In this document: positions 28,386-52,084 of the stretch, one piece after another
How positions within the stretch are numbered: position 1 is the first letter of the stretch
Layout: each line of letters starts with the position of its first letter
Made by a program: the position numbers and the translations under genes
Assembly (NCBI GenBank): GCA_028280285.1
Contig: JANQMA010000011.1
Coordinates: 58,520-122,519, forward strand
Length of the DNA: 64,000 nucleotides
DNA from: Candidatus Omnitrophota bacterium
GTDB taxonomy: Bacteria > Omnitrophota > Gorgyraeia > Zapsychrales > Zapsychraceae
Direction of reading: 5' to 3'
Notes under the pieces: model-generated
What the model was told of the DNA's origin: nothing
Databases searched by the model: none
The model's input: only the letters and a program-made list of their open reading frames with translations

Positions 28386-28829
28386 TTATCTTTCCTCAAC
28401 ACTCCATGGATCCCAGTAATAGGCATCAAAACGGTAGTCATCATCCAGACTTTCCTCGAGTGATGAAGTTGAAAAAAACATGATTTTTGTATCAGATTGT
28501 AATGTCTTAAACCCGTTAGCATACCCTGCCGGTATTTTTAAAACTCCGGGTTTTTTTTCAGTAAGAACAAAACGTGCCACCTCTAAATCTTTCCCCGGAT
28601 TATCCCAATTATCAATTTTGACTGCCGCCACAATCGCTGCACCTGAAACAACATATACATATTTCATTTCATTTTTATGCCCATGCCAGGCACGGATAAA
28701 TTCCGCTCTATGATTGCTGACCGTATAAAACCGGCGGATCGTGCGTAAATCAAAGTCATTGCAAAATTGAATCTGACCGCGGTCATCAACAGCTAATCCT
28801 CCCGCAATTAGTTCTACTTGATCACTCAT
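28386..28829 (-). CDS. Cupin-fold NDP-sugar isomerase/epimerase (FdtA/WxcM C-terminal-like 3,4-ketoisomerase)
   Basis: 147 aa. RAWHGHKNEMKYVYVVSG cupin His motif typical of FdtA/QdtA-like enzymes. Confidence 0.6.
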   Translation of the reverse strand: MSDQVELIAGGLAVDDRGQIQFCNDFDLRTIRRFYTVSNHRAEFIRAWHGHKNEMKYVYVVSGAAIVAAVKIDNWDNPGKDLEVARFVLTEKKPGVLKIPAGYANGFKTLQSDTKIMFFSTSSLEESLDDDYRFDAYYWDPWSVEER

Positions 28830-28853
28830 TAATACATCCTTTCTAAAATTTGC

Positions 28854-29690
28854 TTACGATGCAATATGTGCCCTTAATTTATTGGCAACAGGAACTTCCT
28901 TTTCATGTATCCCTAAAACACCGTCTCCCATCGCGAGCTCAATTTTGCGTACAGCCCCAACCAACCGGCGAAATCCTTCCGGCTCAACCGAAGCAGACTG
29001 ATCAGAGCCATACATCGACCGTGAAAGCGTAATGTGCCGTTCAAGCGAGGTAATCCCCATAGCCGCCGCCGCATAAGATACAGCCAGTCCAACTTCATGC
29101 CCGCTGTAGCCAACAGCGCAGTCATATCTTTGACGCAATGTGTTGATGCAATTTAAATTCGCGTCCGTATCTTCCATCGGATAGGTCGACATGCAGTGCA
29201 TAAGTTCATAAGGACACTTGGCATCCTGGAAAATCTCCACCGCCGCATCGATCATAGCCACATCTGTCATGCCTGTGGAAATAAAGGTATGTCTTCCTTC
29301 GGAGGCCACCTCTTTAAGGAAGTTTTTATCGACAATCATCGCCGAGGCAATCTTGTTATACTTGCAATTATATTGAGCCAAAAACTTTTGGCTTTCTATA
29401 TCCCAGGCGGACGCGAACCAATCAATTCCCTTTTCTTTACAATACCGGTCGACTTCATCATATTCGGCCTTGCCAAACTCGAGCCCTTCTTTTTGTTCGC
29501 GCTGCGTTGTCCCCCAAGGGCTTTCCCGGGGAGAATCAAGCATCTCTTTGGTGTAGACAAGGTCAATGGTCCTTTTTTGAAACTTAACCGCATCAGCTCC
29601 GGCATCTTTGGCCACATCGATCAGCTTCTTTGCGGTTTCAATATCACCATTATGATTAATCCCTATTTCTGCAATGACATAAATGGACAT
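28854..29690 (-). CDS. NeuB-family (ulosonic acid / sugar-phosphate aldolase-type) synthase lacking the SAF domain
   Basis: 278 aa. IAEIGINHNGD and DAVKFQK motifs, no C-terminal SAF extension. Good AGGAG Shine-Dalgarno upstream. Confidence 0.75.
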   Translation of the reverse strand: MSIYVIAEIGINHNGDIETAKKLIDVAKDAGADAVKFQKRTIDLVYTKEMLDSPRESPWGTTQREQKEGLEFGKAEYDEVDRYCKEKGIDWFASAWDIESQKFLAQYNCKYNKIASAMIVDKNFLKEVASEGRHTFISTGMTDVAMIDAAVEIFQDAKCPYELMHCMSTYPMEDTDANLNCINTLRQRYDCAVGYSGHEVGLAVSYAAAAMGITSLERHITLSRSMYGSDQSASVEPEGFRRLVGAVRKIELAMGDGVLGIHEKEVPVANKLRAHIAS

Positions 29691-29698
29691 AACATCTC

Positions 29699-30181
29699 CT
29701 AGTTCTTTTTGATTAATAAATTGTCATATAGTTTACGGATAACCCCATCCCCGCCATTTTGGGGAACAATCACTTGCGCTATATCCAAAATTGTTTGGCT
29801 AGCATCTTGCGGCGCAACAGGATAACCGACAGCTTTCATCACTTCAAGATCATTAATGTCGTTACCGACATACAAAACATCATTAAGATCAACACCGCGT
29901 TCTTGGCAATATTTTGTAAGAACGCTTAATTTGTCTTCAACACCGTGAATCACATCAATGGCCAGCTTATTGGCACGGACCTTTACAACCGCATTGGTTT
30001 CTGTCGAAATGATGACTTGGGGTTTGTCCATCTTCTTAATCAGTGAAATCGCCAGTCCGTCACCACGATGACAAAAAACCGCCTCGGTGCCGTTCTGGTC
30101 AACCAAAACCCGGTTATCCGTTAACACACCGTCAAAATCGTAAACAATCAACTCTATTTTTTCTAAATCTAACTCTTTCAT
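29699..30181 (-). CDS. KdsC-like HAD phosphatase (ulosonic acid-phosphate phosphatase)
   Basis: 160 aa. IVYDFDGVLTDN motif I and overall KdsC/YrbI family pattern. Confidence 0.8.
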   Translation of the reverse strand: MKELDLEKIELIVYDFDGVLTDNRVLVDQNGTEAVFCHRGDGLAISLIKKMDKPQVIISTETNAVVKVRANKLAIDVIHGVEDKLSVLTKYCQERGVDLNDVLYVGNDINDLEVMKAVGYPVAPQDASQTILDIAQVIVPQNGGDGVIRKLYDNLLIKKN

Positions 30182-30186
30182 AACAA

Positions 30187-30909
30187 CTATAGTTTATGCG
30201 CATAAAATGTCATGATATTCCCCGGAAAAGGCGGCGACATTTCTGTATTATCAAACAATCGCATGAGATTTTCTTTTGTAAAATGACGTGTCTCAAAAAA
30301 AGGATAATCGACATGCTCTACTTCAAACCCATGATCACGTAACAAACGGAACACAGACTCATTAGAAAACAGACTGATATGTGTCTGATCGTGCAGCATC
30401 CTGAAATGCTCACCAAAGTGTCTGGCCAAATGGCAATCAAAATCCGGCGTTCCCAACACAATTTTTCCACCTGGCTTCATCACACGATTAATTTCCTTAA
30501 TAATAGATACAGGGTCCTCTAAATGTTCCAAAACGTGCATCAGTACAACGACATCAAAAGAATCACTTTCATATTTGGCATCATGTAATGGCCCTATAAA
30601 TATCTCAGCCCACTTCTTGGCTTGCTCGCCGGCAAATTTTGAAATTTCGACCCCATGTTTTTCCCAGTCATCATTAATCCCGGAAAGAAAAAAGCCAATC
30701 CCACAACCCACATCCAATATCCGCCCTGGGGGTAAGGCATTAATGTAGGCTAAATCATTTTTGACATCTTCCAGAATCCTGTCCCTCTCGTCCGCACGTT
30801 TGCGCTCCATTCCGTCAGGATCAATTGTCACTTTCCAATAATTTTCTTCAAAGACAGACTCTTTGCTTGTTTCTCTTCTAACAAAATATTTATCCGGGCT
30901 TACAAACAT
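30187..30909 (-). CDS. Class I SAM-dependent methyltransferase
   Basis: 240 aa. ILDVGCGIGFF SAM-binding motif. Confidence 0.65.
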   Translation of the reverse strand: MFVSPDKYFVRRETSKESVFEENYWKVTIDPDGMERKRADERDRILEDVKNDLAYINALPPGRILDVGCGIGFFLSGINDDWEKHGVEISKFAGEQAKKWAEIFIGPLHDAKYESDSFDVVVLMHVLEHLEDPVSIIKEINRVMKPGGKIVLGTPDFDCHLARHFGEHFRMLHDQTHISLFSNESVFRLLRDHGFEVEHVDYPFFETRHFTKENLMRLFDNTEMSPPFPGNIMTFYAHKL

Positions 30910-30919
30910 TTATACTCCT

Positions 30920-31609
30920 TTACCTAACATTGTTTTCCATTAATGCTGTTAATTTTTGAAACAGCTCAACATCTTGGGGCTCATCAATTTGAAATGAGTT
31001 TAGTGCCCCCATTTGATAGTGTGTAATCTTACCACCTAAGCGGTTATTTTGCTCCATTAAAATTTCCGGTCTGAAAATATAGATAGAACCATTTTCTATA
31101 AAATCTTCAGGGCAATCTTGCCTGCGCATACGCGCGTTCTTATCATAATTGAGCGGCTCAATGCCTCCGTTATTTTCCCTCCATAAAAATCCATGCACCA
31201 GACATGACGAAAACAGTGAATCGGCATTCTCTTCTATAATATGGTCAATCGCATTGGCTATATCATTTTCTTCTCTCAGCGGAGATGTTGCCTGCAAGAA
31301 AACGACCCAATCGGGGCTGTAATCTTCTTTAGCCCGGTAAACTTCAAGTGTGTGTTTAAGCGCAGATTCCGATGTTGCAAAATCATCACTCAATTCAGCC
31401 GGACGATCAATCACTTCTGCCCCCGCCTTAATAGAAACATTTTTAATATCCTCATTATCCGTTGAAACGACAACGCGATTAATCCTGGCCGTAGTTAGCG
31501 CCTGCTCAATAGAATGCACAATGAGCGGCTTACCGTTAAAAGGAATCAAATTTTTGCGTGGAATCCCTTTTGATCCACCGCGCGCTGGAATAATAGCCAT
31601 TATTTCCAT
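30920..31609 (-). CDS. Acylneuraminate/KDO-type cytidylyltransferase (second CMP-ulosonic acid synthetase)
   Basis: MEIMAIIPARGGSKGIPRKN signature. Start is ambiguous: in-frame ATGs at 31600, 31609 and 31618, and the ORF-track GTG at 31639 would overlap the upstream gene. Confidence 0.8.
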   Translation of the reverse strand: MEIMAIIPARGGSKGIPRKNLIPFNGKPLIVHSIEQALTTARINRVVVSTDNEDIKNVSIKAGAEVIDRPAELSDDFATSESALKHTLEVYRAKEDYSPDWVVFLQATSPLREENDIANAIDHIIEENADSLFSSCLVHGFLWRENNGGIEPLNYDKNARMRRQDCPEDFIENGSIYIFRPEILMEQNNRLGGKITHYQMGALNSFQIDEPQDVELFQKLTALMENNVR

Positions 31610-31619
31610 AGACAGCATC

Positions 31620-33527
31620 CTAAACACATACTTTTTCACTCACAGAGTCACGTGAAGCATCGATTGTCTTTTCATCACTTAAAAAGGAAATAACCCGGTT
31701 AAGCCCACTTTTCTCATCACAAAAAGGGTCGACTATCCTTTTAATATAATTCTCTTTAAATGCAACAAACTCTTCGTCTACTTCTTCTCTTAACCAGAAC
31801 GCAACACAATCAAACAACTCATCGCGACTAAACGCGGATAAATGCGGAATATCCTTAATCCAAATATCTAAAGAGTGATAATACTCTTCCGGAGCATAAT
31901 AAATAGCCTTCACGCCACCCGAAATCGCCTCAAACCCGGCTGATGAGGTAAAAAACGAGATGACCAGGTCGGATACCGCCATAATTTCTTGTGTTGTGTA
32001 AGCAGACGTTTTCTTGTCTATACATATAACCCTTTCCATGTGTTTTAACTTTTTGACAGCTAAACTAATAGGGCTACCCTCGGCATACTTATCAAAAGAA
32101 GACTTCATTTTATAAATCAAAAAATAATCATCATTAGCATCAATGAGTTGAGCAATATCTTCCAACCTCCTTGCCGATTGTGCTTCATCTGTCCAAGAAA
32201 ACCGCCCCATGGGTGCATCACACAAACAAATAATTTTTTTATTTTCCGGAATATTTAACTGCTGCCGCAGTTTATGACGCGCTTCCTTAATAGACGATAA
32301 TTCTTTAACAAAAGAAGATGTTACTGTTCCCACGTCAACCTTTTTCCCAAATGCATCTTGATTGGCTTCGAAAAGCCTTTGCGATAAACGGTTAGATAAC
32401 AGCACATTATGCGGTAAATAGCTATAATAAGTTATGTATAAGTCCGCCAACACCTTATCACTAAAAGGAAAAAACGACGTTGATAAATAAAGGAACGAAT
32501 TATGAGAACCGTTCAACTGCTGTATCATAATACTGTTACTGCTTCCCGGCTCCTGCACGTATAAAAAATGATTTACAGAATACTGTTCAAAAAAAGAAAA
32601 CCAAAGTATCTTTTGCCTCAATGTTTTTATATAAGACAGGAGAAAAATAATATTTTTATTTTTTAGAGATAAAAGCCTCAAATTCAAAGCAAATAACCGA
32701 TGTAACAAGCCGCCCAAATAACGAAACACATTACATTGATTAAGCAGCTCATCTAAGGTATAGCAATTTTTATACTTTACTTTTAACGCATTTAACTGAG
32801 GTTCGTTTATTTTTGTGTTCACAACAAATAAACTCTCCTCATCCTTGATAGTTTCGTCCACCTTTAATTTATCAATGAATCTTTCGCAAACCGATTTGGG
32901 AAAGGTCCCCCATATATTAATGGCGTAATAAAAGTTCTGTTTTCTCGACGCTTTAGCCATAGTCATTTTAAAAATAACATATAGCGGATAAACCAAAGCA
33001 GCAGCCAGATATTTCAATTGATTTCCTCGCGCTTCACGTTTCAAGCGTGAAACACAGCTTGGCGCGATATGAAACCATTTTGGCATGCTTTGCTTCCCGG
33101 CCAACAGAGTATATAATCTATACGGAAAATTTTGCGCAGGCACTAGTTCAACATGATCACATCCGTATTTTTCTCTGAATTTTTTAACAAATATAATCAT
33201 AAGCGTGATTTCTTTAAGATGGAGAATTAAATCTTTTTTCAAGCATAACGCAGAGTTGGAATGCCCCAATAAATCCTTATAGAGGCTTATTTCATCTTCG
33301 GAAAAATAAAAATCAAAAACCTCCTCTATCTTTTTTCCTGCCTCGATATCCGAGGAAAATAAATCAAAGCCGCTTATAAAATCACCGGCAAGCTTGTGTC
33401 CGTTTGTCAAAGAGCCTTCGAAATAAAAAACATCATCATATTGCCTGCACAACCGCTCATGCGTTTGATCAGCATTATAAATTAACAGTGTCTTTGTTTT
33501 TTTGCTGTCCGGCATCCTGCACCTCAT
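31620..33527 (-). CDS. Large TagF-like putative transferase (paralogue of 10119..12038)
   Basis: 635 aa. C-terminal SDLVISFFTSSAGFEAI resembles the TagF D-x-L-I-x-D-Y-S-S motif. Similar length and motif spacing to the ORF at 10119..12038. Confidence 0.4.
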   Translation of the reverse strand: MRCRMPDSKKTKTLLIYNADQTHERLCRQYDDVFYFEGSLTNGHKLAGDFISGFDLFSSDIEAGKKIEEVFDFYFSEDEISLYKDLLGHSNSALCLKKDLILHLKEITLMIIFVKKFREKYGCDHVELVPAQNFPYRLYTLLAGKQSMPKWFHIAPSCVSRLKREARGNQLKYLAAALVYPLYVIFKMTMAKASRKQNFYYAINIWGTFPKSVCERFIDKLKVDETIKDEESLFVVNTKINEPQLNALKVKYKNCYTLDELLNQCNVFRYLGGLLHRLFALNLRLLSLKNKNIIFLLSYIKTLRQKILWFSFFEQYSVNHFLYVQEPGSSNSIMIQQLNGSHNSFLYLSTSFFPFSDKVLADLYITYYSYLPHNVLLSNRLSQRLFEANQDAFGKKVDVGTVTSSFVKELSSIKEARHKLRQQLNIPENKKIICLCDAPMGRFSWTDEAQSARRLEDIAQLIDANDDYFLIYKMKSSFDKYAEGSPISLAVKKLKHMERVICIDKKTSAYTTQEIMAVSDLVISFFTSSAGFEAISGGVKAIYYAPEEYYHSLDIWIKDIPHLSAFSRDELFDCVAFWLREEVDEEFVAFKENYIKRIVDPFCDEKSGLNRVISFLSDEKTIDASRDSVSEKVCV

Positions 33528-35301
33528 TAAGATACGTATATAATCCCCTGTTTTTCATGAGAGCATCGTGCGTACCCTGATCTTTAACCACGCCATCATC
33601 CAGAATAACGATTTTATCCGCTCTTTTGATCGTCGATAAACGATGCGCAATAACAATAACTGTTGTAAATTTAGCAATATCCTCAATAGCATCTTGAATC
33701 TTTTTTTCGGAAATATTGTCCAAAGAGCTTGTTGCTTCATCCATAATAAGAATGGTCGGCTTTCTTAACATAGCCCGCGCGATGGCAATCCTCTGCTTTT
33801 GCCCTCCGGATAGTTTTATACCCGAATCGCCGACTAGCGTGTCATACCCATTTGGCGTTTCGTTAATAAAATCATGCGCATTGGCCAATTTAGCCGCCGC
33901 GACAATCTCTTGCTCAGAGTAATCCTCACGGCCAAAACATATGTTTTCTCGAATCGTACTGTTATAAATAAAAGAGGTCTGGCTCACATAAGCAATGTGG
34001 TCCAGGTAAGATCTATTTGTAAAAGAAAAAATATCCTCACCATCTATGAATATCGTTCCGCGATTGGGTTTATATAATCTGAGCAACAAATTAATAATCG
34101 TTGTTTTTCCCGCCCCTGAAACACCGACAAGAGCCGTAAAATCCCCCATATGAATATCAAAGGAAATACCTTTCACAACATCTTTCGTGTCATCGGTATA
34201 ACGGAACCAGACGTCCTTAAACGTGATTTTATCTTTTGGATTTTCTAACGCGATATCCCCGTAGGTTAAAGTAGAAACCTCCTGCAAAGACAATTCACGC
34301 ACCACCTGCGCATGAGGCAGACATTCACAAATCGACAAAAAAGAAGTCCCTATAATCTGCACTGATGGGAGCAGACGGTTGGTGACGACAACAAATGTTC
34401 CAAAAACAGGCAAAAGCTCTTTCATCATAACTTCCGGCTGATAACTAAGATAAATCCCAACACCGCCTAAGAGCCCAAAAAAGGCTAATTTAATAAACGA
34501 TTCGGGTAGTGCACGCCCCATCAACATTTTTAATTGATTATTCAAATGCTGGTCCATCGCCTTATAAAATTTATCCCTCCAGGTTTGAATTGATTGATAA
34601 ACCTTGATGGATTTGATGCCCGTAATGAGCTCATTTAAGACGACATTTTTCTCCTTTTCCCCCTCCATAGACAAAATGGAGCAACGCAGGGTGATCTTTT
34701 GAATAATCTTTTTAGTAAAAAATGCATAACAAAACCCTACAACAAATAAAACCAATGCGGCCTCAAGGCTTAACAACAAAAGAAGACTCAACAAAAACAA
34801 GGCGTTAACAGCATCGTAAAACAAACGGATAGTCGCCAAAACAAGCCCTGATGCATACCTTGGGGCGGTAGCTCCATTATAAATTAACTTACCTTGCTGA
34901 TGAGTATGGTAGAAATCAATGTCAGCTTGAACAAACTGCTGAAAAGCCTTTTTCTGCGCTTCACGGGAAATCTGCATCATAAAGGAGTATCCAAAATAGT
35001 GATACATAAATCTTGCCGTTACAGCAAAAAACGCCACTACCAATAAAAGAATGCACGCGCTACGCAACGAACCCTCAACTGAAAACGATGCCAGCAGGCC
35101 TTCGAAAAACCCGACCATAGTGCCCTGCGCCTGCACATCTAATCCATAGTTGATAACCGGATACAATGCCGCCAAACTCATAGTTTCCAGCCCGCCAGCA
35201 AGAAATGCCAGCATAATTAACAGACAGGATTTAATCTTATGCGGCTTAAAAAAATACCAAACAGTTTTGGGATATAATAAAATGTTATCTAATTTACTCA
35301 T
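33475..35301 (-). CDS. ABC exporter, fused transmembrane + ATPase (MsbA/type I exporter-like)
   Basis: Six predicted TM helices, then Walker A GVSGAGKTT, ABC signature LSGGQKQRIAIARA and Walker B ILIMDEAT. The ATG at 35301 avoids overlap with the regulator gene; the ORF-track TTG start is at 35343. Confidence 0.8.
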   Translation of the reverse strand: MSKLDNILLYPKTVWYFFKPHKIKSCLLIMLAFLAGGLETMSLAALYPVINYGLDVQAQGTMVGFFEGLLASFSVEGSLRSACILLLVVAFFAVTARFMYHYFGYSFMMQISREAQKKAFQQFVQADIDFYHTHQQGKLIYNGATAPRYASGLVLATIRLFYDAVNALFLLSLLLLLSLEAALVLFVVGFCYAFFTKKIIQKITLRCSILSMEGEKEKNVVLNELITGIKSIKVYQSIQTWRDKFYKAMDQHLNNQLKMLMGRALPESFIKLAFFGLLGGVGIYLSYQPEVMMKELLPVFGTFVVVTNRLLPSVQIIGTSFLSICECLPHAQVVRELSLQEVSTLTYGDIALENPKDKITFKDVWFRYTDDTKDVVKGISFDIHMGDFTALVGVSGAGKTTIINLLLRLYKPNRGTIFIDGEDIFSFTNRSYLDHIAYVSQTSFIYNSTIRENICFGREDYSEQEIVAAAKLANAHDFINETPNGYDTLVGDSGIKLSGGQKQRIAIARAMLRKPTILIMDEATSSLDNISEKKIQDAIEDIAKFTTVIVIAHRLSTIKRADKIVILDDGVVKDQGTHDALMKNRGLYTYLNEVQDAGQQKNKDTVNL

Positions 35302-35854
35302 TTTTAAGATTACTGCCGATAACCAGATTTGAGTCTTGGACAAGTTCTGAGACTAAGTCGATACTACGCTCTTTGTTAATTTCATTAACTTCCACATTCT
35401 CTTTACACAACAATAAAACACCATCAATAGTTTGATCAGGAATCTCATTAATCAATGTATATGATAAATCATCCAAATCTAATTCTTGCAGCACAACCTC
35501 GACCAATTTGCCAAAATCAGATGAACCGTAAATATAAAACTTACGATTACCCTGGGCGTATAAATCGGAAAGGTATTTATACATCGCGTCTTTAATCGAT
35601 CCAATCGAATGAATAGTCTTCCAGGCATATTTAACGGACTTGCGCAGCTTCTCAGAAATACCCTTTGGTGTCAGGAGGTACTGCACCTTACGCTTATCCA
35701 ATTGGACAATACGGATATACCCCTTAGAAATAAGACGGCGCAGAACCATATTAACCATTCCGAGGGACATACCTGTTTGTTTGGAAAGATACCGCTGGTT
35801 GGCATTCAGCTCAGGGCCGATAATATTAACAAGCTCAAATTCTCTTTCGTCCAA
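35294..35854 (-). CDS. Winged-helix (MarR/GntR-like HTH) transcriptional regulator
   Basis: 186 aa. N-terminal HTH LVNIIGPELNANQRYLSKQTGMSLGMVNMVLRRLISKGYI; the C-terminal domain has no recognised family. TTG start. Head of the island, divergent from 36114. Confidence 0.5.
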   Translation of the reverse strand: MDEREFELVNIIGPELNANQRYLSKQTGMSLGMVNMVLRRLISKGYIRIVQLDKRKVQYLLTPKGISEKLRKSVKYAWKTIHSIGSIKDAMYKYLSDLYAQGNRKFYIYGSSDFGKLVEVVLQELDLDDLSYTLINEIPDQTIDGVLLLCKENVEVNEINKERSIDLVSELVQDSNLVIGSNLKNE

Positions 35855-36019
35855 ATCCTGTTATCTCCGTTGAACTTAAAACGTGGGGGAATTAATATGT
35901 TCAATAATTGAACGATTGTATAATATAGAATAATACCGACAGTGTCAAGATAAATATGGTTCTTAGTCGTTGGTCGTTAGTATTTAGTCATTGGTTTGAC
36001 AACTAAAAGGTAGATTCAT

Positions 36020-36047
36020 TTGCTTTTTTCAGCATGCTTTGTATAAT
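36020..36047 (+). promoter_or_regulatory. Candidate sigma70-type promoter (TTGCTT -35, 16-bp spacer, TGTATAAT extended -10-like) for the GT-C gene
   Basis: TTGCTT near 36020-36025 and TATAAT at ~36042-36047, ~67 nt upstream of the ATG at 36114. A similar TTGTATAAT is at ~35916-35924. Confidence 0.3.
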
Positions 36048-36113
36048 ACCCTCAAAAAGGTTAAATGCTTTCATCCTTAGCCTTTGACCTTACACCAATA
36101 AAACTAACAGGTT

Positions 36114-37697
36114 ATGAACAAAATCATCCCTTTTTTCCTGGTTTTGACCTTTATTGCGGCCAGCTTCATTCTAAAGGTCCCGCATTTAGACGATCCTTAC
36201 TTCGGTCAGCATATATCAAGGCAGCTGCAAACCGTTGCAACTATTGACTATTACACACATTTCGGCATCGACCCGCTCTACCCAAGAGTCAATTATGAAG
36301 GCTGGCCCGGCTATTTGATTTATGAAATGCCGCTTTATCAAATGCTTACAACATGGCTGGCCCCTTCACCGGATAAAACGCTCATAACAGCCCGTATGCT
36401 CAATATATTCTTTGGGGCCCTGTCCACTATTTTCCTCTATCTGATAGCCGCGTTTTGGTTTAACCGCCGTGTCGGGGTCTATACGGCGCTCATATTCACG
36501 TTTGTACCTTTAAATATTGCTTTTATGCAGTCTTCGCTGCCGGATATATCCGCGGTAGCCATGGCCTTAGGCGCCTTATTATTCCTTATATATTGGCATC
36601 ACCTGCGCAAATGGTGGTTGATCATCCCCTATTGCCTGCTTGGCAGCATCGCATCACTCATTAAACCGATATTTTTATTGCCGGCTTTGATTTATATCGG
36701 CTTTTTTATTATCCAGAAATTATTCATACAAAAATCAACAAAGATAGGCCCCCTTATAAAGGAATACATCCCTTTTATTATCGCAACTTTTGTTATAGGC
36801 GTTCTATGCTTGCTGTGGATTAATCATAGCCATACTGTCCACGAAGGCAGCGGCCTTCTTAAACATCTATCATGGAAAGCTTTGCTCCATCCTAAGTTTT
36901 ATTATGTCATCGTCATTAGAATACTTAGACAACTTCTTAATCCGTTTAATACGCTTCTTTTTGTTATAGGCGGATTTTATCTTATTAAAAATTACCGCAG
37001 CAAAGAACAAATCACACTTTTAATTATACCGTTTTTGTTTTATCCACTGTTCGCCCATGTCGCAACAGTACATACCTATTATTCCTTAAGCATGTCACCG
37101 TATTTTTGCATGATCGCCGGGCTCGGCCTTTTTTGGATTGAAGAAAAACTCAGGTGTGACAATAAAAAGGTGGTTGTGATTATTATTATCACCATCTTGT
37201 GCGGATTTTCCGCTTTATCGTCGGTGGTCATGTACCTTAATTACGTAACAACTTCCATGATTCTGCCCAATCAGCGCTACACAGAAATGACAAACGAGGT
37301 TGGACATTTACTTGAACCTATGCAGTTTTCTACTGTGATCATTAATCCTAACGGCAACTTTTCCCTCGAAGAACGATTGCGCCACCTGCCTTCACGTTAC
37401 ATCAAATCATTTTTCAAAAAACCATCGGCAGCACAACTTTCTGAACGTGTTTCCAATGACCATCCTCTGGTTATGTCAGCGACGATGTACGCCCTTAAAC
37501 AATACGGGCGCTGCATTTATATTGATGACATTTCAACGTTTGATTTGGAAAACACAAAGGAAGATTTTAAGGGGCACTTGCGTTATGTCATCTACTATTT
37601 ATATGACGATCATAAACAAATTTATCAGCAGATGTCCGGCTATAGACCGGTTTTTGAGGATAAAAAGTGGGTTGTGTATGATTTAGCTGCAAAATAG
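36114..37697 (+). CDS. GT-C fold membrane glycosyltransferase (ArnT/PMT GT39/GT83-like, polyprenyl-phosphate-sugar dependent)
   Basis: 527 aa. ~11-13 TM helices, an acidic first loop (HLDDPYFG) and a C-terminal soluble domain of ~150 aa. Confidence 0.55.
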   Translation: MNKIIPFFLVLTFIAASFILKVPHLDDPYFGQHISRQLQTVATIDYYTHFGIDPLYPRVNYEGWPGYLIYEMPLYQMLTTWLAPSPDKTLITARMLNIFFGALSTIFLYLIAAFWFNRRVGVYTALIFTFVPLNIAFMQSSLPDISAVAMALGALLFLIYWHHLRKWWLIIPYCLLGSIASLIKPIFLLPALIYIGFFIIQKLFIQKSTKIGPLIKEYIPFIIATFVIGVLCLLWINHSHTVHEGSGLLKHLSWKALLHPKFYYVIVIRILRQLLNPFNTLLFVIGGFYLIKNYRSKEQITLLIIPFLFYPLFAHVATVHTYYSLSMSPYFCMIAGLGLFWIEEKLRCDNKKVVVIIIITILCGFSALSSVVMYLNYVTTSMILPNQRYTEMTNEVGHLLEPMQFSTVIINPNGNFSLEERLRHLPSRYIKSFFKKPSAAQLSERVSNDHPLVMSATMYALKQYGRCIYIDDISTFDLENTKEDFKGHLRYVIYYLYDDHKQIYQQMSGYRPVFEDKKWVVYDLAAK

Positions 37698-37704
37698 TAA
37701 AACT

Positions 37705-38583
37705 TTATTTTTCGCCGTAAGCAATAATAGTATCTGTTTTGTCTATTTTGTGTAAAAGGGTGTTATACATTTGCTCAAGCCACGCGGCTCTTAAAAAGGG
37801 CCATTTTTTATGCCCTCCCGGCTTACCACAAAAAATCCAGTAAATATGATTGGCCAGAGGATATCTTTGATATCCTTCTACTCTGACATTTTTAAATCCC
37901 GCCTCTTCTAAAAACACCTTCAAACTGGTTTTGGTGTGTAACAGCATATGCTCACTCCAAAATGTGAATTTTTTAAAACTTTTTAAATGAAATAAAGTGA
38001 TCAGCGCGTCCTTCGCGTGTGGTACTTCAACAACGATTTTTCCGCCGGGCGCAAGCATATTATAAATTCTTTCGAAAGCTGCGGAGGCATCAATTAAGTG
38101 CTCAACAACATGAAATAATGTGATGATATCAATATTTTCTACTGGGCAGTCATCAATACTCGTATAGACCTTATACCCTTCTTTGGCCAATTCATTACGA
38201 ATATGATCTTGCGGTTCAACCGCATAAACGTCAGACGCATATTTTCCTAATAAATCAAGCACTCCTCCAACACCTGTACCGCAATCCATCCATTTCTTTC
38301 CACGGATAAGTTCTTTAAACTGTGCACACCTTCTTTCATCATCATCTTTGACAAGCTGTTTTGCCTGCTCTCTGTCACTCGAAGACCAATACTCGCACCC
38401 CTCCTTTGCCTCATAATACTGCAAATCAATATGATCAGATTGTGAAAGAAAAATCACGCCCGACTTTTTATCACATAAAACTGAAATATCATCCCGGTCA
38501 CGTACTTGAGGGAATATCTCAACCACATCTTCCTGCTTAGTAATCCCCAGTGCGCATAATTGATCTAAAACTTTATGTCCCAT
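37705..38583 (-). CDS. Class I SAM-dependent methyltransferase
   Basis: 292 aa. MDCGTGVGGVLDLL SAM-binding motif. Confidence 0.6.
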   Translation of the reverse strand: MGHKVLDQLCALGITKQEDVVEIFPQVRDRDDISVLCDKKSGVIFLSQSDHIDLQYYEAKEGCEYWSSSDREQAKQLVKDDDERRCAQFKELIRGKKWMDCGTGVGGVLDLLGKYASDVYAVEPQDHIRNELAKEGYKVYTSIDDCPVENIDIITLFHVVEHLIDASAAFERIYNMLAPGGKIVVEVPHAKDALITLFHLKSFKKFTFWSEHMLLHTKTSLKVFLEEAGFKNVRVEGYQRYPLANHIYWIFCGKPGGHKKWPFLRAAWLEQMYNTLLHKIDKTDTIIAYGEK

Positions 38584-38591
38584 ATTATTTT

Positions 38592-39644
38592 CTATCTGCA
38601 GCTTTCATATATTTGCTGACAAGTGTCTTTTAAGCTATATTTTTGCTGCCAGGCAGAATAGTCTCGCTCAAAAGCTTTAAGACTGCTGATATACCAGATA
38701 TGATCGCCGCTGCGGTTTTGATCAGAAACACTATAATTCATTTTCTTTCCGGATATTTCTTCACACAGACTGATCGCCTCGAGGACCGAACAACTATTGT
38801 CCCGGCCGCCGCCCATATTATAAACAGCTGACGATTTAGGACTTTGCACATAGTGATAAAAGGCATTGACCATATCATAACTATGAATATTATCGCGCAC
38901 CTGCTTACCCTTATAGCCGAAAATGGTGTACTCTTTCCCCGTGATGCAGCATTTCATTAAATAGGAAAGAAACCCGTGCAACTGCGCACCGCTATGATTA
39001 GGCCCGGTCAAACATCCTCCACGGAAACACACGGTATTCATATCAAAATACCGTCCGTACTCCTGCACAAGCACATCAGCCGCCACTTTAGAAGCCCCAA
39101 ACAGAGAATGCTTACTCTGGTCAATACTCATCGTCTCATCAATCCCGTCCCAAAAGGCATGGTCTTGTTCAATTTCCCAACGCGTATCTGTTTCAATCAA
39201 AGGCAAACTGTTCGGCAAATCTCCGTAGACTTTATTAGTGCTGGTAAATATAAAGGCCGCTTTGGGGCAATGCAAACGCGTTAATTCCAACAGATTAAGC
39301 GTGCCGTTGGCATTAATTTCAAAATCAACAAATGGCTCCCGCGCCGCCCAGTCATGCGATGGCTGCGCTGCGGTATGGATAATAACCGAAATATCGGCTC
39401 CATACTCCTTAAAAATATTTTCTAAATCAGCATGATTACGGATATCAACCGGTTTATGTGTGTAGGCGGGAATTTCTTCCTGCAGAATTTTGAGGTTCCA
39501 GGCCGTTGACCCCTCTTCTCCGAAAAAATATTGGCGCATGTCATTGTCAATCCCGACAATGTTAAAGCCTTTATCGGCAAAAAAACGGACGGATTCTGAA
39601 CCAATCAAGCCCGCCGAACCTGTAATGAGAGCAATGTTATTCAT
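38592..39644 (-). CDS. CDP-paratose 2-epimerase (Tyv)-like NAD-dependent epimerase
   Basis: 350 aa. [28 protein letters not shown] and GKQVRDNIH motifs align with the Tyv/RfbE family. Confidence 0.7.
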
Positions 39645-39650
39645 AAAATT

Positions 39651-39697
39651 AGTTGCTGGTTGCTCGTTGCTAGCAACAAGCGACTAGCAACTGTTTG
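39651..39697. repeat. Intergenic palindromic repeat family R2 (GTTGCTAGCAAC core), copy 1
   Basis: agttgctggttgctcgttgctagcaacaagcgactagcaactgtttg, starting ~6 nt from the start codon of 38592..39644. Second copy at ~54292-54357. Confidence 0.6.
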
Positions 39698-39820
39698 AAT
39701 AATTATTAAGCCACCAAGATTATACATCAATCCTCACAGATTGAAATATGAATTCTTTGATTTAATTGTGGGCAAATCGCCAAATATTCCTATAATAGAC
39801 TATGAAAGTTGGGAAAAATC

Positions 39821-40690
39821 ATGGGCAACATACGCGATATATTCAAAACTAAGGACAAAACCTTTTCTATCGAACTGTTTCCGCCCAAGACGGAAAAAGG
39901 CTACAGCAATTTGATGGGAACCATCGCCAAAATGGCTGCCCTTAAGCCGGACTTTATTTCATGCACCTATGGCGCCGGTGGCAGCAGCCGCGGCAAAACA
40001 CTTGATATTGTTGAACATATTGAAAAAGAGCACAATATAGCCGCCATGCATCATTTGACGTGCGTTATGCACAGCAAAGATGAAATGGAATCTATACTTT
40101 CTGATATTAAATCCCGTGGTGTTGACAATATATTGGCCCTGCGCGGAGATCCTCCGCAGGATAATCCTGATTGGATGCCGGGAGAAAATAACTTTAAGTA
40201 TAGCTCCGAATTAATCGCATTTATCCGGGAAAAATTCGGTGATGATTTTACGATCGGTGTGGCAGGCTTTCCGGAAGGCCATATTCTTTGCCCGGACCTT
40301 AATCAGGATGCTCAATATTTAAAAGGAAAAGTCCAAAGCGGCGCTGATTTTGTAATCACTCAGCTCTTTTTTGATAACCGTGATTACTTTGAGTATATGG
40401 GAAGGCTTAAAAATATTGATGTGACTGTACGCATTATTCCGGGCATTTTGCCGATAACGGATTATCAGGCCTTGCTCCGGTTCACAAAACTGTGTGGCGC
40501 AAGTGTACCAGATAAAGTGCATAAAATCTTTGAGCCTATTCAAGACGATAAAGAAGCAACACTTAAAGCCGGCATCGCATTCTGTATCGAGCAATGCGAG
40601 CGGCTGCTTGCCGCAGGCGCCCCGGGCATCCACTTCTACGCGCTTAACAAAATCCATCCGGTCGATGAAATATTATCAGCGATTTGTTAA
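39821..40690 (+). CDS. metF: 5,10-methylenetetrahydrofolate reductase
   Basis: MetF signature region SIELFPPKT...ISCTYGAGGSSR and ~290 aa length. ATG at 39821 is preferred over TTG at 39809. TATAAT at ~39791. Confidence 0.85.
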   Translation: MGNIRDIFKTKDKTFSIELFPPKTEKGYSNLMGTIAKMAALKPDFISCTYGAGGSSRGKTLDIVEHIEKEHNIAAMHHLTCVMHSKDEMESILSDIKSRGVDNILALRGDPPQDNPDWMPGENNFKYSSELIAFIREKFGDDFTIGVAGFPEGHILCPDLNQDAQYLKGKVQSGADFVITQLFFDNRDYFEYMGRLKNIDVTVRIIPGILPITDYQALLRFTKLCGASVPDKVHKIFEPIQDDKEATLKAGIAFCIEQCERLLAAGAPGIHFYALNKIHPVDEILSAIC

Positions 40691-40743
40691 ATTAAGGGGA
40701 CACAATACTTAATTCAATAATTAAGTATTGTGTCCCCTTAATT
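40690..40743. repeat. Intergenic hairpin repeat family R1 (perfect 25-bp stem aattaaggggacacaatacttaatt), copy 1
   Basis: Left arm ~40690-40714, 4-nt loop, right arm ~40719-40743, immediately after the metF stop. Identical arms at ~55705-55767. Confidence 0.6.
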
Positions 40744-40756
40744 TTAACCGCTACCT

Positions 40757-42291: not shown

Positions 42292-42365
42292 AGACCCAAG
42301 ACACCGGACACATGACACAGGGTAAAACTTGTGTCTTGTGTCATGTGACTTGTGTCCTATTTCAA
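42292..42365 (-). terminator. Imperfect hairpin + U-run downstream of yceI-like gene (minus strand)
   Basis: gacacatgacacag / ctgtgtcatgtgac-type inverted repeats at ~42300-42358, followed on the minus strand by a U8 run (plus-strand A-run ~42285-42292). Confidence 0.45.
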
Positions 42366-47312: not shown

Positions 47313-47338
47313 ATCTTGCTCCAAAATAATTTAAAAAT

Positions 47339-47411
47339 CGTACTTCGTACTTAGAACTTCGTACCTCGTGGATTACGATGTACTAAGTACGATGTGCGAA
47401 GTACGACTGTA
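47339..47411. repeat. Palindromic repeat family R3 (GTACTTAG / CTAAGTAC modules), copy 1
   Basis: cgtacttcgtacttagaacttcgtacc ... gatgtactaagtacgatgtgcgaagtacg, imperfect inverted repeats. Related copy at ~59582-59655. Confidence 0.5.
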
Positions 47412-47465
47412 TTAATTTAATTATATAATACTCACTTTTCGACCTATGACAAATGATATTTAATA

Positions 47466-47531
47466 AATTGGTGACAGGCACTTATTTTCAAAAAACAAAT
47501 TGGTGATGAAAATAAGTGCCTGTCACCAATT
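47466..47531 (+). promoter_or_regulatory. Perfect 23-bp inverted repeat (20-nt spacer) in the 5' leader of the ZIP transporter gene
   Basis: aattggtgacaggcacttatttt ... aaaataagtgcctgtcaccaatt, followed by tttta ~20 nt before the ATG at 47553. A TATAAT sits ~40 nt upstream of it at ~47424. Confidence 0.5.
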
Positions 47532-47552
47532 TTATGTTATGATGATTGCATT

Positions 47553-48329
47553 ATGGGCACAATGACTCTCATTTACTGGGCACTTGTGACCGGTGTTTTA
47601 AGCGCGCTGGCAACCGGCCTCGGAGCAATCCCTGTTAAATTCTTGAAGGAAGACTCACACAAGGTCCGCGGCATGGCTTCGGCGATTGCCGCCGGGATGA
47701 TGATTTCCGCGTCCGTCTTTTCGCTCGCCCAAGAAGGCATTGCCCTAGAAGCCAAAATCCCCTTTTCTCCTTATATTGTCATTATCGGTTTATTGTTGGG
47801 GGCTGCTTTTTTTCATTGGTCAGAACGGTTTTTGGATGAACCTGATATTACAAAGTTTTATACAAAACAAGGGTTTAGCCGTAAAGGATTTCTGATTTTC
47901 ATTGCGATGTTTATTCATTCCATCCCCGAAGGGATTGCCATCGGTGTGGCCTTTGCCACCGATAATCTCACCTTTGGTTTGACCATGGCAATCGCGATTG
48001 CTGTGCACAATATCCCGGAAGGGATCGCCATTTCTCTACCTCTTAAGGCCGAAGGGATCAGCACACCCAAATGTGCCTGGATTTCCATTCTCACAAGTGT
48101 TCCACAACCGGTCATGGCTGTGCCCGCGGCTGTGCTCGCCTGGTTTTTTGAGCCACTTCTACCGATCGGCTTAGGCTTTGCCGGCGGAGCCATGATTTAT
48201 CTGACTATTTCTGAGTTAATTCCTGATGCGTTTGAAGAGGGTGGCCACCAGTTAACTGCCTGGGGCGTTATGATTGGTTTGTGCGGGATGCTTCTTATTA
48301 CAACACTGCTTAATTTGATTCCTTATTAA
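47553..48329 (+). CDS. zupT: ZIP-family divalent metal transporter (ZupT-like)
   Basis: 258 aa, 8 TM helices. HSIPEGIAIG and HNIPEGIAIS metal-binding motifs. Confidence 0.8.
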   Translation: MGTMTLIYWALVTGVLSALATGLGAIPVKFLKEDSHKVRGMASAIAAGMMISASVFSLAQEGIALEAKIPFSPYIVIIGLLLGAAFFHWSERFLDEPDITKFYTKQGFSRKGFLIFIAMFIHSIPEGIAIGVAFATDNLTFGLTMAIAIAVHNIPEGIAISLPLKAEGISTPKCAWISILTSVPQPVMAVPAAVLAWFFEPLLPIGLGFAGGAMIYLTISELIPDAFEEGGHQLTAWGVMIGLCGMLLITTLLNLIPY

Positions 48330-48360
48330 AAAAGGGCGGCCACAAGGGCCGCCCCTACGA

Positions 48361-48855
48361 TCACTCCACCGACACAACTGTCACATCAAAGTTCAACACC
48401 TTACCGGCCAGTGGATGATTAAAACTGACAACAACTGTTGTTTCTTTCACTTCCGTCACAACAGCTGGAACAGGCTTTCCTTCAGGATCATTAAACTGCA
48501 AAATCATTCCAACAGACACTTGAAAATCTTCAGGGAATTGCTCCATAGGAAGTTCCGTAAAGGCATCGGGATTAACTGCACCATAGGCGTCTTCTGGTTG
48601 AAGGGTGACCTTCTTTGAATCGCCTGGTTCTAGACCCAACAAGGCATTTTCAAGCCCGGGGATGATTTGACCTGATCCGTGCACATATTCCAAAGGTGTT
48701 TTACCCGATGTTGTGTCAAGCACCTCGCCTTCGACTGTTAAGACATAATCAAACTTAACTGTTTTTCCTTCCTCAATCTTTGCTGCCAACGCCGACGAAC
48801 TTAACGCAAAAATTAAACCGGCACTCACTGCAACACCCTTAAGAATAGATTTCAT
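48361..48855 (-). CDS. Periplasmic FKBP-type peptidyl-prolyl cis-trans isomerase
   Basis: Signal peptide, then FKBP fold pattern (VKFDYVLTVEGEVLDTT...IIPGLENALLGLEPGD). Confidence 0.75.
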   Translation of the reverse strand: MKSILKGVAVSAGLIFALSSSALAAKIEEGKTVKFDYVLTVEGEVLDTTSGKTPLEYVHGSGQIIPGLENALLGLEPGDSKKVTLQPEDAYGAVNPDAFTELPMEQFPEDFQVSVGMILQFNDPEGKPVPAVVTEVKETTVVVSFNHPLAGKVLNFDVTVVSVE

Positions 48856-48924
48856 AACAATCCCCTTTACGGATAGTAGATTAATGTATAGCTCACCATA
48901 CGCGGTTGTTGGAAGTTTGTCAAA

Positions 48925-49941
48925 TTAAAACGCCTTCTGCCAACCAATGGTTGTAGTCAAGTCCGTCATCAACTGCGGGCCCTCCGCGTGAATATACGCA
49001 GGAAAACCGATTTCTAAAGCCAGACGGTGATCCTTAAAGATTCCTGAGGGAATCACGATATTAGTTCCAAACAAAAGATCCAAACGCTCATGTGCATAAT
49101 TATTAGGATCTGCGGTTGGAACCATACTAGCATTTAATTGATGATCACGTCCACGGATATGTCCGCGCTTGGTCGCGTTAACACGGAAAGACGTGCTGAA
49201 CCAATCAAGCCACTCATAGGCAATCCATGTCGTTAACCGGTACTCATTACCCAGCGTATACTTGTGTTCATTACGCCCATTACGTACAACGGAGCTGACT
49301 TGCGTGCCCCAGTTCCATTTGTCGTGTGTATCACTATAGGTAAGCCCCGGAAGCAGATCAAATGTGCCTGAACCAAGCTGCATCGGATATGGCAATTTTC
49401 GATCAGGCCCCATTAATGTCGCATCACGTTCACCAATCGAACCAGTCGGCATGCTTACTCCGAAATTAAACTGAACCTTTTTATTTAAGTATCTTTCCAA
49501 AGAAAACATCCCAGTTAATTTAAGGTCCCCAATGCCTTCGGTCCTTGTAGTGAAGGTTTTGCCATCTGTCCGGCGGACATGCGACATGGATTTAAAATGA
49601 TAAGGAAGCATAGCCATTAACGTCACCTCATCAGTGAGACCATACATCATTCCAACCATGTGCATATGCATATTCATCTTCGTTGGAGCAATCATAAATT
49701 CGTTATGCACTGACTCCTTTGATATATTTTTTGAGCCGGCATAAAGTTCGTCCATATCCATATACATATGTCGGTAAGAGACCATCCACTCCCCTTGTTT
49801 ATGCATATGATCGGCCATCACACCGATCGGCGCATGACCGGTAGGCGAAGCATGACCTTCATGTCCTGCATGAACTGCACCGGCACTAGCATTAAAAGCC
49901 AAAGTTAATAAAAACAAAAATGTTAAGAATAATTTTTTCAT
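48925..49941 (-). CDS. Outer-membrane beta-barrel protein with His/Met-rich N-terminal region (CopB-like?)
   Basis: In-frame ATG gives MKKLFLTFLFLLTLAFNASAGA, a signal peptide. Followed by HAGHEGHASPTGHAPIGVMADHMHKQ and alternating amphipathic strands. C-terminal ...GWQKAF ends in Phe. The ORF-track N-terminal extension to 50079 is probably spurious. Confidence 0.5.
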   Translation of the reverse strand: MKKLFLTFLFLLTLAFNASAGAVHAGHEGHASPTGHAPIGVMADHMHKQGEWMVSYRHMYMDMDELYAGSKNISKESVHNEFMIAPTKMNMHMHMVGMMYGLTDEVTLMAMLPYHFKSMSHVRRTDGKTFTTRTEGIGDLKLTGMFSLERYLNKKVQFNFGVSMPTGSIGERDATLMGPDRKLPYPMQLGSGTFDLLPGLTYSDTHDKWNWGTQVSSVVRNGRNEHKYTLGNEYRLTTWIAYEWLDWFSTSFRVNATKRGHIRGRDHQLNASMVPTADPNNYAHERLDLLFGTNIVIPSGIFKDHRLALEIGFPAYIHAEGPQLMTDLTTTIGWQKAF

Positions 49942-50147
49942 AATATTGATAGAACAATGGGTAAAATCATTGTTCAACCTTTCTATATATTGGAAATTGA
50001 AATTACATAAGTATTTCGGTATTCGGTATCGATGCCCGTATCGGTTTTCGGTTGCGTTAAGCGTGTTGTATAACGACAACCGTTAACCGAACATACGAAA
50101 CGGGCTTCGCAACCGTAACCGAAAAACGTTACCGGTTTATGTATTTA

Positions 50148-50510
50148 TTATGAAGTGATAGGAACGTGCTCGATGGAAGGATAACTGCCTTCTTGTTTAA
50201 CAAGAACATGAAACAAAGAAAATAATAAAAACCGATGTGGGTGCGCACTTTGTTGTTTCTGCGCCATAATAAACTGTGGTGAACCGGCCTTATCTGTTTG
50301 CATAGGTGTATGTTGAGGTGCGGTTGCAACAAACGCAATGCCATCAATGGCTTGATGTTTTTTAATAAGCGCCTGCGTACATAGACAAATCGCCCGTCGG
50401 CCACCACACAGATTAGCTTCTTGCGCAACTTTAATGTAAATACCCAGCGGAAAAATCCATAGAAGGAAAGCGGCACACACACAAAGAGTAAGAAATTTAA
50501 AACCTGACAT
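50148..50510 (-). CDS. Hypothetical small membrane/secreted protein (doubtful)
   Basis: 120 aa with an N-terminal hydrophobic segment. An ORF in another frame overlaps it. No recognisable family. Confidence 0.2.
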   Translation of the reverse strand: MSGFKFLTLCVCAAFLLWIFPLGIYIKVAQEANLCGGRRAICLCTQALIKKHQAIDGIAFVATAPQHTPMQTDKAGSPQFIMAQKQQSAHPHRFLLFSLFHVLVKQEGSYPSIEHVPITS

Positions 50511-50555
50511 AAGAGCTTACTTATAACAAAAAGAAGACTTGAGGTAAAGAAAAAT

Positions 50556-51263: not shown

Positions 51264-51311
51264 AACTTGCTCCTTTTTAAAAGATAGGGATTTATCCCTC
51301 TAACCCTATTT

Positions 51312-52082: not shown

Positions 52083-52084
52083 AA

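Follow-up and report, generated by a model that had tools for sequence, protein, structure and literature searches.

Repetitive extragenic palindromic (REP) elements, BIME and REPIN elements and miniature inverted-repeat transposable elements (MITEs) are short, imperfect palindromes of extragenic DNA, and the mRNA hairpins they form can alter the stability or translation of neighboring cistrons. Cyanobacteria reportedly carry a further type, the STRR heptamer repeats, which are said to have been described by Mazel et al. in 1990. Among the long simple sequence repeats (SSRs) of intergenic regions, heptamers are over-represented, and their length varies between close relatives (Rehm 2015, PMC4692102). 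Sets of the heptamer TAACTGA occur in Beggiatoaceae, some Cyanobacteria and Bacteroidetes; for these, translational control has been proposed (MacGregor 2015, PMC4679880). In Haemophilus influenzae, the (ATCTTTC)n repeat of the hmw 5' untranslated region (5'-UTR) forms a hairpin that is processed by RNase III (PMC12721329), and in phage T4, hairpins reduce the spacing between Shine-Dalgarno sequence and AUG from 22 to 5 nt at gene 38 and from 27 to 11 nt at gene 25 (PMC3014915). Here, we analyzed a 64,000-nt stretch of a Candidatus Omnitrophota genome (GCA_028280285.1, contig JANQMA010000011.1, positions 58,520 to 122,519; hereafter the window), in which a short repeat, R2, stands directly before the start codons of an epimerase gene and an ABC-2 permease gene. 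The original prediction, made from the sequence alone, had described R2 as a repeat family with a GTTGCTAGCAAC core. Its unit proved to be a 7-nt repeat and, judged by sequence, R2 belongs to a broad class of inverted heptamer-SSR hairpins and is not a family specific to this genome; since look-alikes occupy the matching position in other phyla, R2 probably affects the translation of the genes it precedes.

Both copies were found where they had been reported (Table 1), and a repeat finder paired them as D6 and D7 with identities of 86% and 83%. R2 comprises 47 nt in copy 1 and 66 nt in copy 2. Two internal insertions had been proposed for copy 2, but only one indel, of 19 nt, is needed in a MAFFT alignment of the copies, in which 44 of the 47 shared columns are identical. 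On the mRNA, the architecture is 5'-(NGTTGCT)3-4 (AGCAACN)3-3', an inverted pair of tandem heptamer arrays whose pattern (NGTTGCT)n (AGCAACN)n recurs on either strand, and Tandem Repeats Finder (TRF) reports a period of 7 at 39652, 54292 and 54325. Copy 1 reads (AGTTGCT GGTTGCT CGTTGCT)(AGCAACA AGCGACT AGCAACT)GTTTG on the plus strand and CAAAC-AGTTGCT-AGTCGCT-TGTTGCT-AGCAACG-AGCAACC-AGCAACT-AATTTT-ATG on the mRNA (minus strand); the mRNA of copy 2 reads CAAAC-AGTTGCT-AGTTGCT-CGATGCT-AGTCGCT-CGGGGACTTGCT-AGCAACT-AGCAACC-AGCAACT-TTTATC-ATG. What had been taken for a palindromic GCTAGC core is merely the junction of the two opposed arrays. The ATG-proximal arm has three AGCAACN units in each copy, all of them perfect, and it is the distal arm that is degenerate; the gene-facing AC arm contains no ATG, GTG or TTG, and TTG starts occur in the GT arm. 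The copies also share a CAAAC end, an AGTCGCT variant and an AGCAACC-AGCAACT end, and these common idiosyncrasies point to one element that was copied rather than to independent slippage.

The genome sequence covered here consists of the window and about 9 kb of contigs from the Logan assembly (~73 kb in total). The two halves of R2, TTGCTAGCAACNAGCAACCAGCAACT (26 nt) and CAAACAGTTGCTAGTYGCT (19 nt), were searched in the window with up to 3 mismatches, and each was confined to the two R2 loci, with no third copy; shuffled sequences gave chance expectations of 0.00 and 0.04, respectively. Logan contigs (run SRR20820735) match the window base for base over 28592–39924 and 47377–60870, and because this independent assembly reproduces both copies, an assembly artefact is excluded. 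The G+C content of the window is 41%. As a side observation, the tetranucleotide CTAG is strongly avoided in the window (31 sites versus about 228 expected from base composition), and 6 of the 31 sites fall within R2, whose two copies total 113 nt.

Copy 1 lies in a divergent region between the epimerase gene and metF. Copy 2 sits, as had been claimed, between the ATPase and permease genes of an ABC system, in a 73-nt gap between ATPase stop and permease ATG that contains the 66-nt element. The reported common orientation of the copies and their distance of about 6 nt from the ATG were confirmed, the spacer being exactly 6 nt at both minus-strand genes (plus strand: AAAATT at 39645–39650 and GATAAA at 54286–54291), and R2 now fills the initiation region upstream from position -7, as far as about -53 at copy 1 and about -72 at copy 2. 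The gene behind copy 1 had been called a Tyv-like epimerase; profile evidence gives only a generic NAD-dependent epimerase/dehydratase that reaches no NCBIfam equivalog. Its N-terminus aligns with the orthologue, which supports the start. The permease start at 54285 is secure, with homologues of uniformly 257 aa at 100% coverage and a match of NF011648 over residues 2–257 of 257, whereas automatic gene callers begin the gene 28 codons too late (P0121, 229 aa); hairpin insertions thus appear to mislead such programs. The best named matches of MetF and the permease come from metagenome-assembled genomes (MAGs) of Omnitrophota/Omnitrophica, with 65–73% identity.

In agreement with the original prediction, neither gene has GGAG, GAGG, AGGA, AAGG or GGGA at -18 to -4. 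However, a Shine-Dalgarno-like tetramer is missing from 23/45 genes called here (present in 22/45), which makes its absence at the R2 genes unremarkable for this genome; moreover, the ancestral Shine-Dalgarno sequence of the permease gene, AAGGA, persists just upstream of copy 2. For copy 1, there is only a weak GGUGG, 18 nt upstream.

Comparison with related Omnitrophota contigs, covering two or three relatives per R2 site, showed that the gene order around both sites is kept. The gap between ATPase and permease genes measures 0 nt in L144, 22 nt in L141-143 and 73 nt in the window. In L144, the junction reads GAGGAAATAA followed immediately by ATG, with the Shine-Dalgarno sequence within the last ATPase codons, and L141-143 carry an AAGGGA of their own in the 22-nt gap; the window reads AAGGAAATAG-A-[R2, CAAAC...AACT]-TTTATC-ATG. 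Consequently, the ATPase-internal Shine-Dalgarno sequence, which lies 6 nt from the permease ATG in orthologues, has been moved away by the 73-nt gap in the window. At the other site, no R2 precedes the epimerase ATG in the epimerase/metF locus of GCA_020430025.1 (L146). Given this absence from orthologous sites and the wider gap, both copies look like lineage-specific insertions. By eye, no target-site duplication was seen at copy 2 against the empty site of L144, nor at copy 1. The L146 locus has a heptamer hairpin of its own at L146:1240-1300, nearer to metF than to the epimerase gene; its units GTACTGG/TCACTGG/AGACTGG/CGACTGA (xxACTGG) resemble the TAACTGA and STRR1 families.

Folding predictions agree with the stable mRNA hairpin that had been proposed for the initiation region. 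On the mRNA strand, the stem-loop is predicted at -24.6 kcal/mol for copy 1 (86 nt folded) and -28.6 kcal/mol for copy 2 (105 nt folded), with z-scores of -3.3 and -2.3. In longer sequence context, the AC arm has a predicted mean unpaired probability of 0.20 and is mostly paired in the ensemble; the AUG is assigned 0.38 at copy 1 and 0.10 at copy 2. Over the whole window, Rfam 15 gave no match at gathering score and, in E-value mode, eukaryotic miRNA-precursor and similar hairpin models alone, as chance-level hits with E-values of 0.3–6, far below the thresholds of these models. A consensus terminator scan called neither copy, the tails being 4 consecutive U that run into the ATG, and a promoter consensus scan returned a match at 39730-39702 (minus strand), which is at chance level (2 found versus 1.4 expected). 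Besides that, three candidate signals were rejected by inspection alone: an integron attC site (AGCAAC departs from RYYYAAC), pairing with the 3' end of 16S rRNA (the complementary GGUUG sits inside helix 45) and an RNA thermometer (there is no Shine-Dalgarno sequence to mask).

Arrays with the R2 unit are found in many other bacteria. With one genome per species, a scan for three GTTGCT units in a row, a loose pattern used as an unbiased array sample, returned at least 120 matches; those listed include GTTGCT arrays from Acidobacteriota, Planctomycetota, Bacteroidota, Verrucomicrobiota, Cyanobacteria, lineages of the candidate phyla radiation (CPR), an Omnitrophota MAG and others. These scans sampled one heptamer family, and gene starts in the cross-phylum counts come from a simple, crude open reading frame (ORF) heuristic. 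Among the matches listed, the ATG of a long ORF follows an AGCAACN array within 30 nt in 23/102 cases for the sense and 9/102 for the antisense orientation, compared with ~10% of random positions, and inverted pairs within 150 nt in named genomes have the GT arm first in 15 cases and the AC arm first in none (p = 6e-5). For example, arrays in named genomes end 1–18 nt from the ATG of prfC, queC, rpe-like and glycosyltransferase genes. A stricter pattern yielded 15 loci in JGI metagenomes, with 55–65% G+C and none from the organism of the window. Here, the GTTGCT/AGCAAC hairpin starts 4–7 nt past the upstream stop and ends 2–11 nt before the ATG; the following genes, confirmed by Pfam, encode ribosomal proteins S3 (rpsC) and S7 (rpsG), HisG, an MFS transporter and FliF. 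The association with start codons, as opposed to random placement, is thus borne out by related elements elsewhere that are linked to gene starts. A scan of viral contigs gave one chance-type match.

In the literature, we found no description of a GTTGCT/AGCAAC hairpin, of its stop-to-start placement or of the polarity rule, in a search that left most subscription journals outside its reach. Full-text queries with the repeat sequences themselves returned unrelated primer or genome strings only, and nothing relevant was found on Omnitrophota together with repeats. A separate observation concerns Chryseobacterium spp. (L063, L109, L075), where (AGCAACT)n lies 12–13 nt upstream of one small gene (MITDKEF..., 130 aa); there are about 4 units in one species and 10 in C. 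indologenes J31.

The role in translation or mRNA processing that had been suggested for R2 is plausible. Tentatively, we favor the reading that R2 is a heptamer-SSR palindromic repeat which now forms the initiation region, and that initiation there is Shine-Dalgarno-independent and coupled to upstream translation; we consider this possible, and what it describes is much firmer than the mechanism, which we infer. As follows directly from the comparisons, one element appears to have been copied in this lineage into two sites just 5' of start codons, namely the 5' leader of the epimerase gene and the formerly tight stop/Shine-Dalgarno/start junction of the ATPase-permease pair. With the A/C-rich arm of the mRNA stem-loop ending 6 nt before the AUG, the element as a whole would make up the upstream half of the initiation region. 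The closed stem would block usual ribosome binding at the AUG and, as no Shine-Dalgarno sequence lies within reach, initiation would be driven by translation from upstream. At the permease gene, the ATPase stop precedes the stem by 6 nt, and ribosomes that terminate there may act jointly with the hairpin. In addition, the hairpin of copy 2 could hold the old AAGGA near the AUG, as in the split ribosome-binding sites of T4 genes 25 and 38. The AAGGA is separated by 11 nt from the heptamer stem and by 4 nt from an extended A-U helix, which the AUG follows at 6 nt and 0 nt, respectively. The distance between AAGGA and AUG, 78 nt in linear sequence, would shrink to about 4–17 nt if the predicted stem forms. 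On this geometry, split-site bridging is plausible for copy 2 only. At the epimerase gene, a possible 28-codon upstream ORF would traverse the hairpin and stop on the ATG. This candidate reads through copy 1 in the sole open frame, its TGA overlapping the epimerase ATG (ATGA); whether it is real is uncertain. Once the stem is opened, the AGCAACN tract may give ribosomes an unstructured region on which to land without a Shine-Dalgarno sequence, in line with the proposal for the TAACTGA repeats.

Several points weigh against this reading. The antisense (plus) strand folds more stably in both copies (-32.3 and -39.2 kcal/mol), because its G:U pairs turn into A·C mismatches on the mRNA strand, and a consistent folding advantage of the sense strand is absent among nine ATG-adjacent elements; hence, selection for the stem at the RNA level finds no support. 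As R2 is lineage-specific and absent at the orthologous sites examined, it is no old conserved regulator. Coupling would have to be arranged differently at the two copies, since the upstream ORF stops before the stem at one and reads through it at the other, and Shine-Dalgarno bridging fits copy 2 only, on paper, and does not hold generally for the metagenome loci. The candidate upstream ORF is not conserved at L146, and the promoter-like match at 39730-39702 overlaps it and would put the transcription start inside the ORF. Across the look-alikes, the number of units varies between near-identical contigs (L126/L137, L127/L129, L131/L134), which is ordinary SSR behavior, and the polarity and orientation biases could merely reflect which insertions are tolerated.

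A wider form of the idea is doubtful in our view: heptamer hairpins might constitute a widespread, undescribed class of translation elements that pass terminating ribosomes over the stem to an A/C-rich landing arm and an AUG without Shine-Dalgarno sequence, by shunt-like transfer, coupled re-initiation or Shine-Dalgarno bridging. If true, this would explain the fixed polarity and the clustering of heptamers at start codons in several phyla, as well as their presence in ribosomal-protein operons of Acidobacteriota, Planctomycetota, Bacteroidota and Omnitrophota.

Within the ~73 kb, there are at least 6 heptamer-array hairpins, i.e., the two R2 copies and at least four others. TRF and an inverted-repeat finder showed that 7 of roughly ten tandem arrays in the window with at least 2.9 copies have a period of 7, and that all 7 lie within hairpins. 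Judged by its sequence, the hairpin at 42300–42356 looks like the terminator of the yceI-like gene; inside the loop of the one at 47338–47406, one Logan contig breaks. The second repeat family listed in Table 1 folds at -34.6 and -37.5 kcal/mol (z-scores of -8 and -11.6). At metF, its first copy occupies the convergent end. The second, in the same operon as R2 copy 2, is inserted where a 256-aa gene ends and supplies the last codon and stop (AAT TAA) of that gene; GAGG directly adjoins the 5' base of the palindrome, and 8 nt past its 3' base stands an ATG that has no Shine-Dalgarno sequence, at a junction where the gap in L144 is 2 nt. This second palindrome at an equivalent junction, together with the heptamer hairpins, shows palindromic insertion between stop/Shine-Dalgarno sequence and the following start to be habitual in this genome rather than peculiar to R2.

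Table 1 Position of R2, the adjoining gene signals and other hairpin-forming repeats. Coordinates refer to the window unless a contig is named.
Feature	Position	Strand	Remarks
R2 copy 1	39651-39697	-	Inverted heptamer arrays forming a hairpin; identical in independent Logan contig L001
R2 copy 2	54292-54357	-	As copy 1 plus 19-nt extra block; identical in Logan contig L140
Copy 1, ATG-proximal arm	39651-39671	-	Three perfect AGCAACN units, A/C-rich
Copy 1, ATG-distal arm	39672-39692	-	AGTTGCT AGTCGCT TGTTGCT; degenerate middle unit
Epimerase start codon	39642-39644	-	Gene 38592-39644; 6 nt (AATTTT on mRNA) past copy 1
Permease start codon	54283-54285	-	ABC-2 (YadH-like) permease gene 53512-54285; 6 nt (TTTATC) past copy 2
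ATPase stop TAG and Shine-Dalgarno-like AAGGA	54359-54361 and 54364-54368	-	AAGGA inside last ATPase codons
Candidate upstream ORF	39641-39730	-	28-29 codons; ATG 39727-39725; GAGGA 3 nt before ATG
Heptamer hairpin GACAC/GTGTC	42300-42356	-	Followed by T8; after yceI-like gene
Heptamer hairpin TCGTACT/AGTACGA	47338-47406	-	About 26 nt before nuoF-like ATG (47312), GGAG in between
Heptamer hairpin ACTTGGT/CCTAAGT	59583-59652		Exactly spans gap of convergent stops 59581 and 59654
Heptamer hairpin GTTGTT/AACAAC	L122:770-837		Just outside the window; ends 19 nt before ATG without Shine-Dalgarno sequence
Heptamer hairpin, GCGTATA-like units	L122:1-76		At contig end
Second repeat family, perfect 25-26-bp palindrome AATTAAGGGGACACAATACTTAATT plus complement	40689-40744 and 55705-55767		Unrelated to R2

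Concerning the surroundings of the two copies, a long minus-strand cluster for sugar-nucleotide and polysaccharide (O-antigen-like) biosynthesis occupies most of positions 1–39000, with genes for epimerases, an aminotransferase, glycosyltransferases, NeuB, methyltransferases and an ABC exporter, and copy 1 probably lies at its promoter-proximal end. Beyond the permease gene, an imperfect inverted repeat at 53397–53507 (32-nt arms, 84% complementary, 47 nt apart), which holds TCTGATAA-type 8-mers, occupies the 226-nt gap between permease and response-regulator genes; the same gap measures 66–80 nt in relatives. At 47465–47532, just upstream of the gene for a ZIP-family metal transporter (47553), a perfect 26-nt inverted repeat AAATTGGTGACAGGCACTTATTTTCA with a 16-nt loop may represent a terminator or a site for a regulator.

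Among the other explanations, the one we take most seriously, while judging it somewhat unlikely, is that R2 is a selfish or neutral palindrome without regulatory role, either REP/REPIN- or MITE-like or arisen by fold-back duplication of a slippage-prone heptamer array. Its adjacency to start codons would then follow from the short intercistronic gaps being the least harmful place for a compact hairpin. This would fit the absence of R2 at orthologous sites in relatives, the variable unit number in near-identical contigs and the functional diversity of the downstream genes, and it is also consistent with the other hairpins of the window, heptamer ones included, at gene ends and convergent junctions, with the second palindrome family at an equivalent junction, with the lack of strand asymmetry in folding and with the half of the genes here that do without a Shine-Dalgarno sequence anyway. 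The MITE of the original prediction, however, finds no support in a target-site duplication, even against the orthologous empty site, and R2 has neither a conserved GTAG-type end nor a known mobilizing enzyme (a RAYT gene was not searched for). Also speaking against neutrality are the strict 15:0 polarity and the sense bias towards starts among the matches listed, the tolerance of a hairpin directly before rpsC and rpsG, and the perfect AGCAAC cores of the ATG-proximal arms next to degenerate distal arms. Moreover, R2 replaces the ribosome-binding region whatever its origin, so that translation can hardly go unaffected.

The remaining alternatives place the function of R2 elsewhere than in initiation. 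It is distinctly unlikely, in our estimate, that the stem-loop acts in mRNA stability or processing, shielding the downstream cistron as a 5' hairpin and the upstream one as a 3' hairpin, or forming an RNase III site, and so setting the relative expression of neighbors. The intercistronic or 5'-leader location and the long, near-perfect stems of 20–30 bp would suit such a role, for which the heptamer SSR in an RNase III-cut 5'-UTR hairpin is a tested precedent (PMC12721329); the promoter-like match would even set the 5' end of the epimerase transcript at the hairpin base, but that match is at chance level, and the gene-facing AC arm and the distance of 2–11 nt to the ATG are left unexplained. 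Very improbable is an intrinsic terminator or attenuator in which hairpin and U-rich spacer (AAUUUUAU, UUUUAUCAU) partly stop transcription before the gene. Both copies do have short U-rich tracts past the stem on the mRNA, and with its T8 the heptamer hairpin at 42300–42356 is a textbook terminator; against this, the scan calls neither copy, the 4 consecutive U run into the start codon, look-alikes lie inside ribosomal-protein operons, and the GT-first polarity sets the AC-rich rather than the GU-rich arm beside the tail. The least probable of the explanations considered is a function at the DNA level, with a regulator binding R2 as an operator or as an iteron-like array of direct and inverted 7-bp repeats. 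Repeated symmetric half-sites in the divergent promoter region of copy 1 recall such an array, and in Nostoc a modulating effect of heptamer repeats on the binding of regulators has been proposed (bioRxiv 10.1101/2022.06.06.494920); however, copy 2 and most look-alikes are intercistronic within operons, where an operator makes little sense, and the GTTGCT/AGCAAC unit recurs in unrelated phyla.

Heptamers beside start codons have long been reported in Beggiatoaceae, cyanobacteria and Bacteroidetes, with no tested function. New here are the AGCAACN unit, the combination of an array with its inverse as a hairpin that exactly fills stop-to-start gaps, and a strict polarity rule across unrelated phyla, including hairpins before rpsC and rpsG. 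If functional, such hairpins would offer a general route to Shine-Dalgarno-free translation, or a means by which coupling is kept across an insertion; if neutral, they would show palindromic repeats colonizing initiation regions harmlessly. Cultured carriers of AGCAACN, such as Chryseobacterium indologenes (10 AGCAACT units before the 130-aa gene), Kordia algicida and Terriglobus, make the question testable.

Set against the palindromic families, R2 resembles REP, REPIN and MITE elements as a dispersed, lineage-specific, imperfect palindromic insertion in extragenic DNA, but its arms are tandem heptamers instead of unique sequence, and the GTAG-type tetranucleotide of REP is absent from both of its ends. 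In the T4 split sites, as in the predicted fold at copy 2, a hairpin lies between the Shine-Dalgarno sequence (here AAGGA) and the AUG at an intercistronic junction. The T4 hairpins, however, are unique sequences that are conserved in T-even phages and were tested by mutation, whereas R2 is a repeat insertion. The hmw leader shares with R2 a heptamer SSR that pairs with a complementary arm in a long hairpin, and controls expression after transcription; unlike R2, it has a G-rich, non-repeat complementary arm and at least 11 units, and it is phase-variable and confined to a single locus. RNase III dependence was shown for hmw, while the R2 hairpin is a predicted one. Some sets of the Xanthomonas GGGAATC repeats are likewise inverted and able to form stem-loops (PMC4692102), but these repeats are G-rich, with a quadruplex proposed, and have neither a fixed 6-nt distance to the start nor a described GT-first rule.

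The TAACTGA repeats come nearer. They, too, are short tandem arrays of 7-nt units (2–3 or more copies, a number that R2 reaches), intergenic and oriented towards a start, and they end a few nt from it, as do R2 (6 nt) and its look-alikes (1–18 nt), usually without a Shine-Dalgarno sequence between repeat and start. Diverse downstream genes, including those for ribosomal proteins, indels in 7-nt steps and a patchy spread across phyla are likewise common to TAACTGA repeats and R2-type arrays. The differences lie in the unit (AGCAAC[C/T/G] versus TAACTGA) and host phylum, in the number of sets, with two R2 copies in ~73 kb versus 169–170 TAACTGA sets in the BOGUAY genome, and in the pairing of the R2 array with its inverse into a long hairpin, whereas one inverted set was present among the 169–170 of BOGUAY (PMC4679880). 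Altogether, the closest functional likeness of R2 is to these start-codon-proximal heptamer repeats, whose placement it shares, with a different unit sequence and an inverted arm added.

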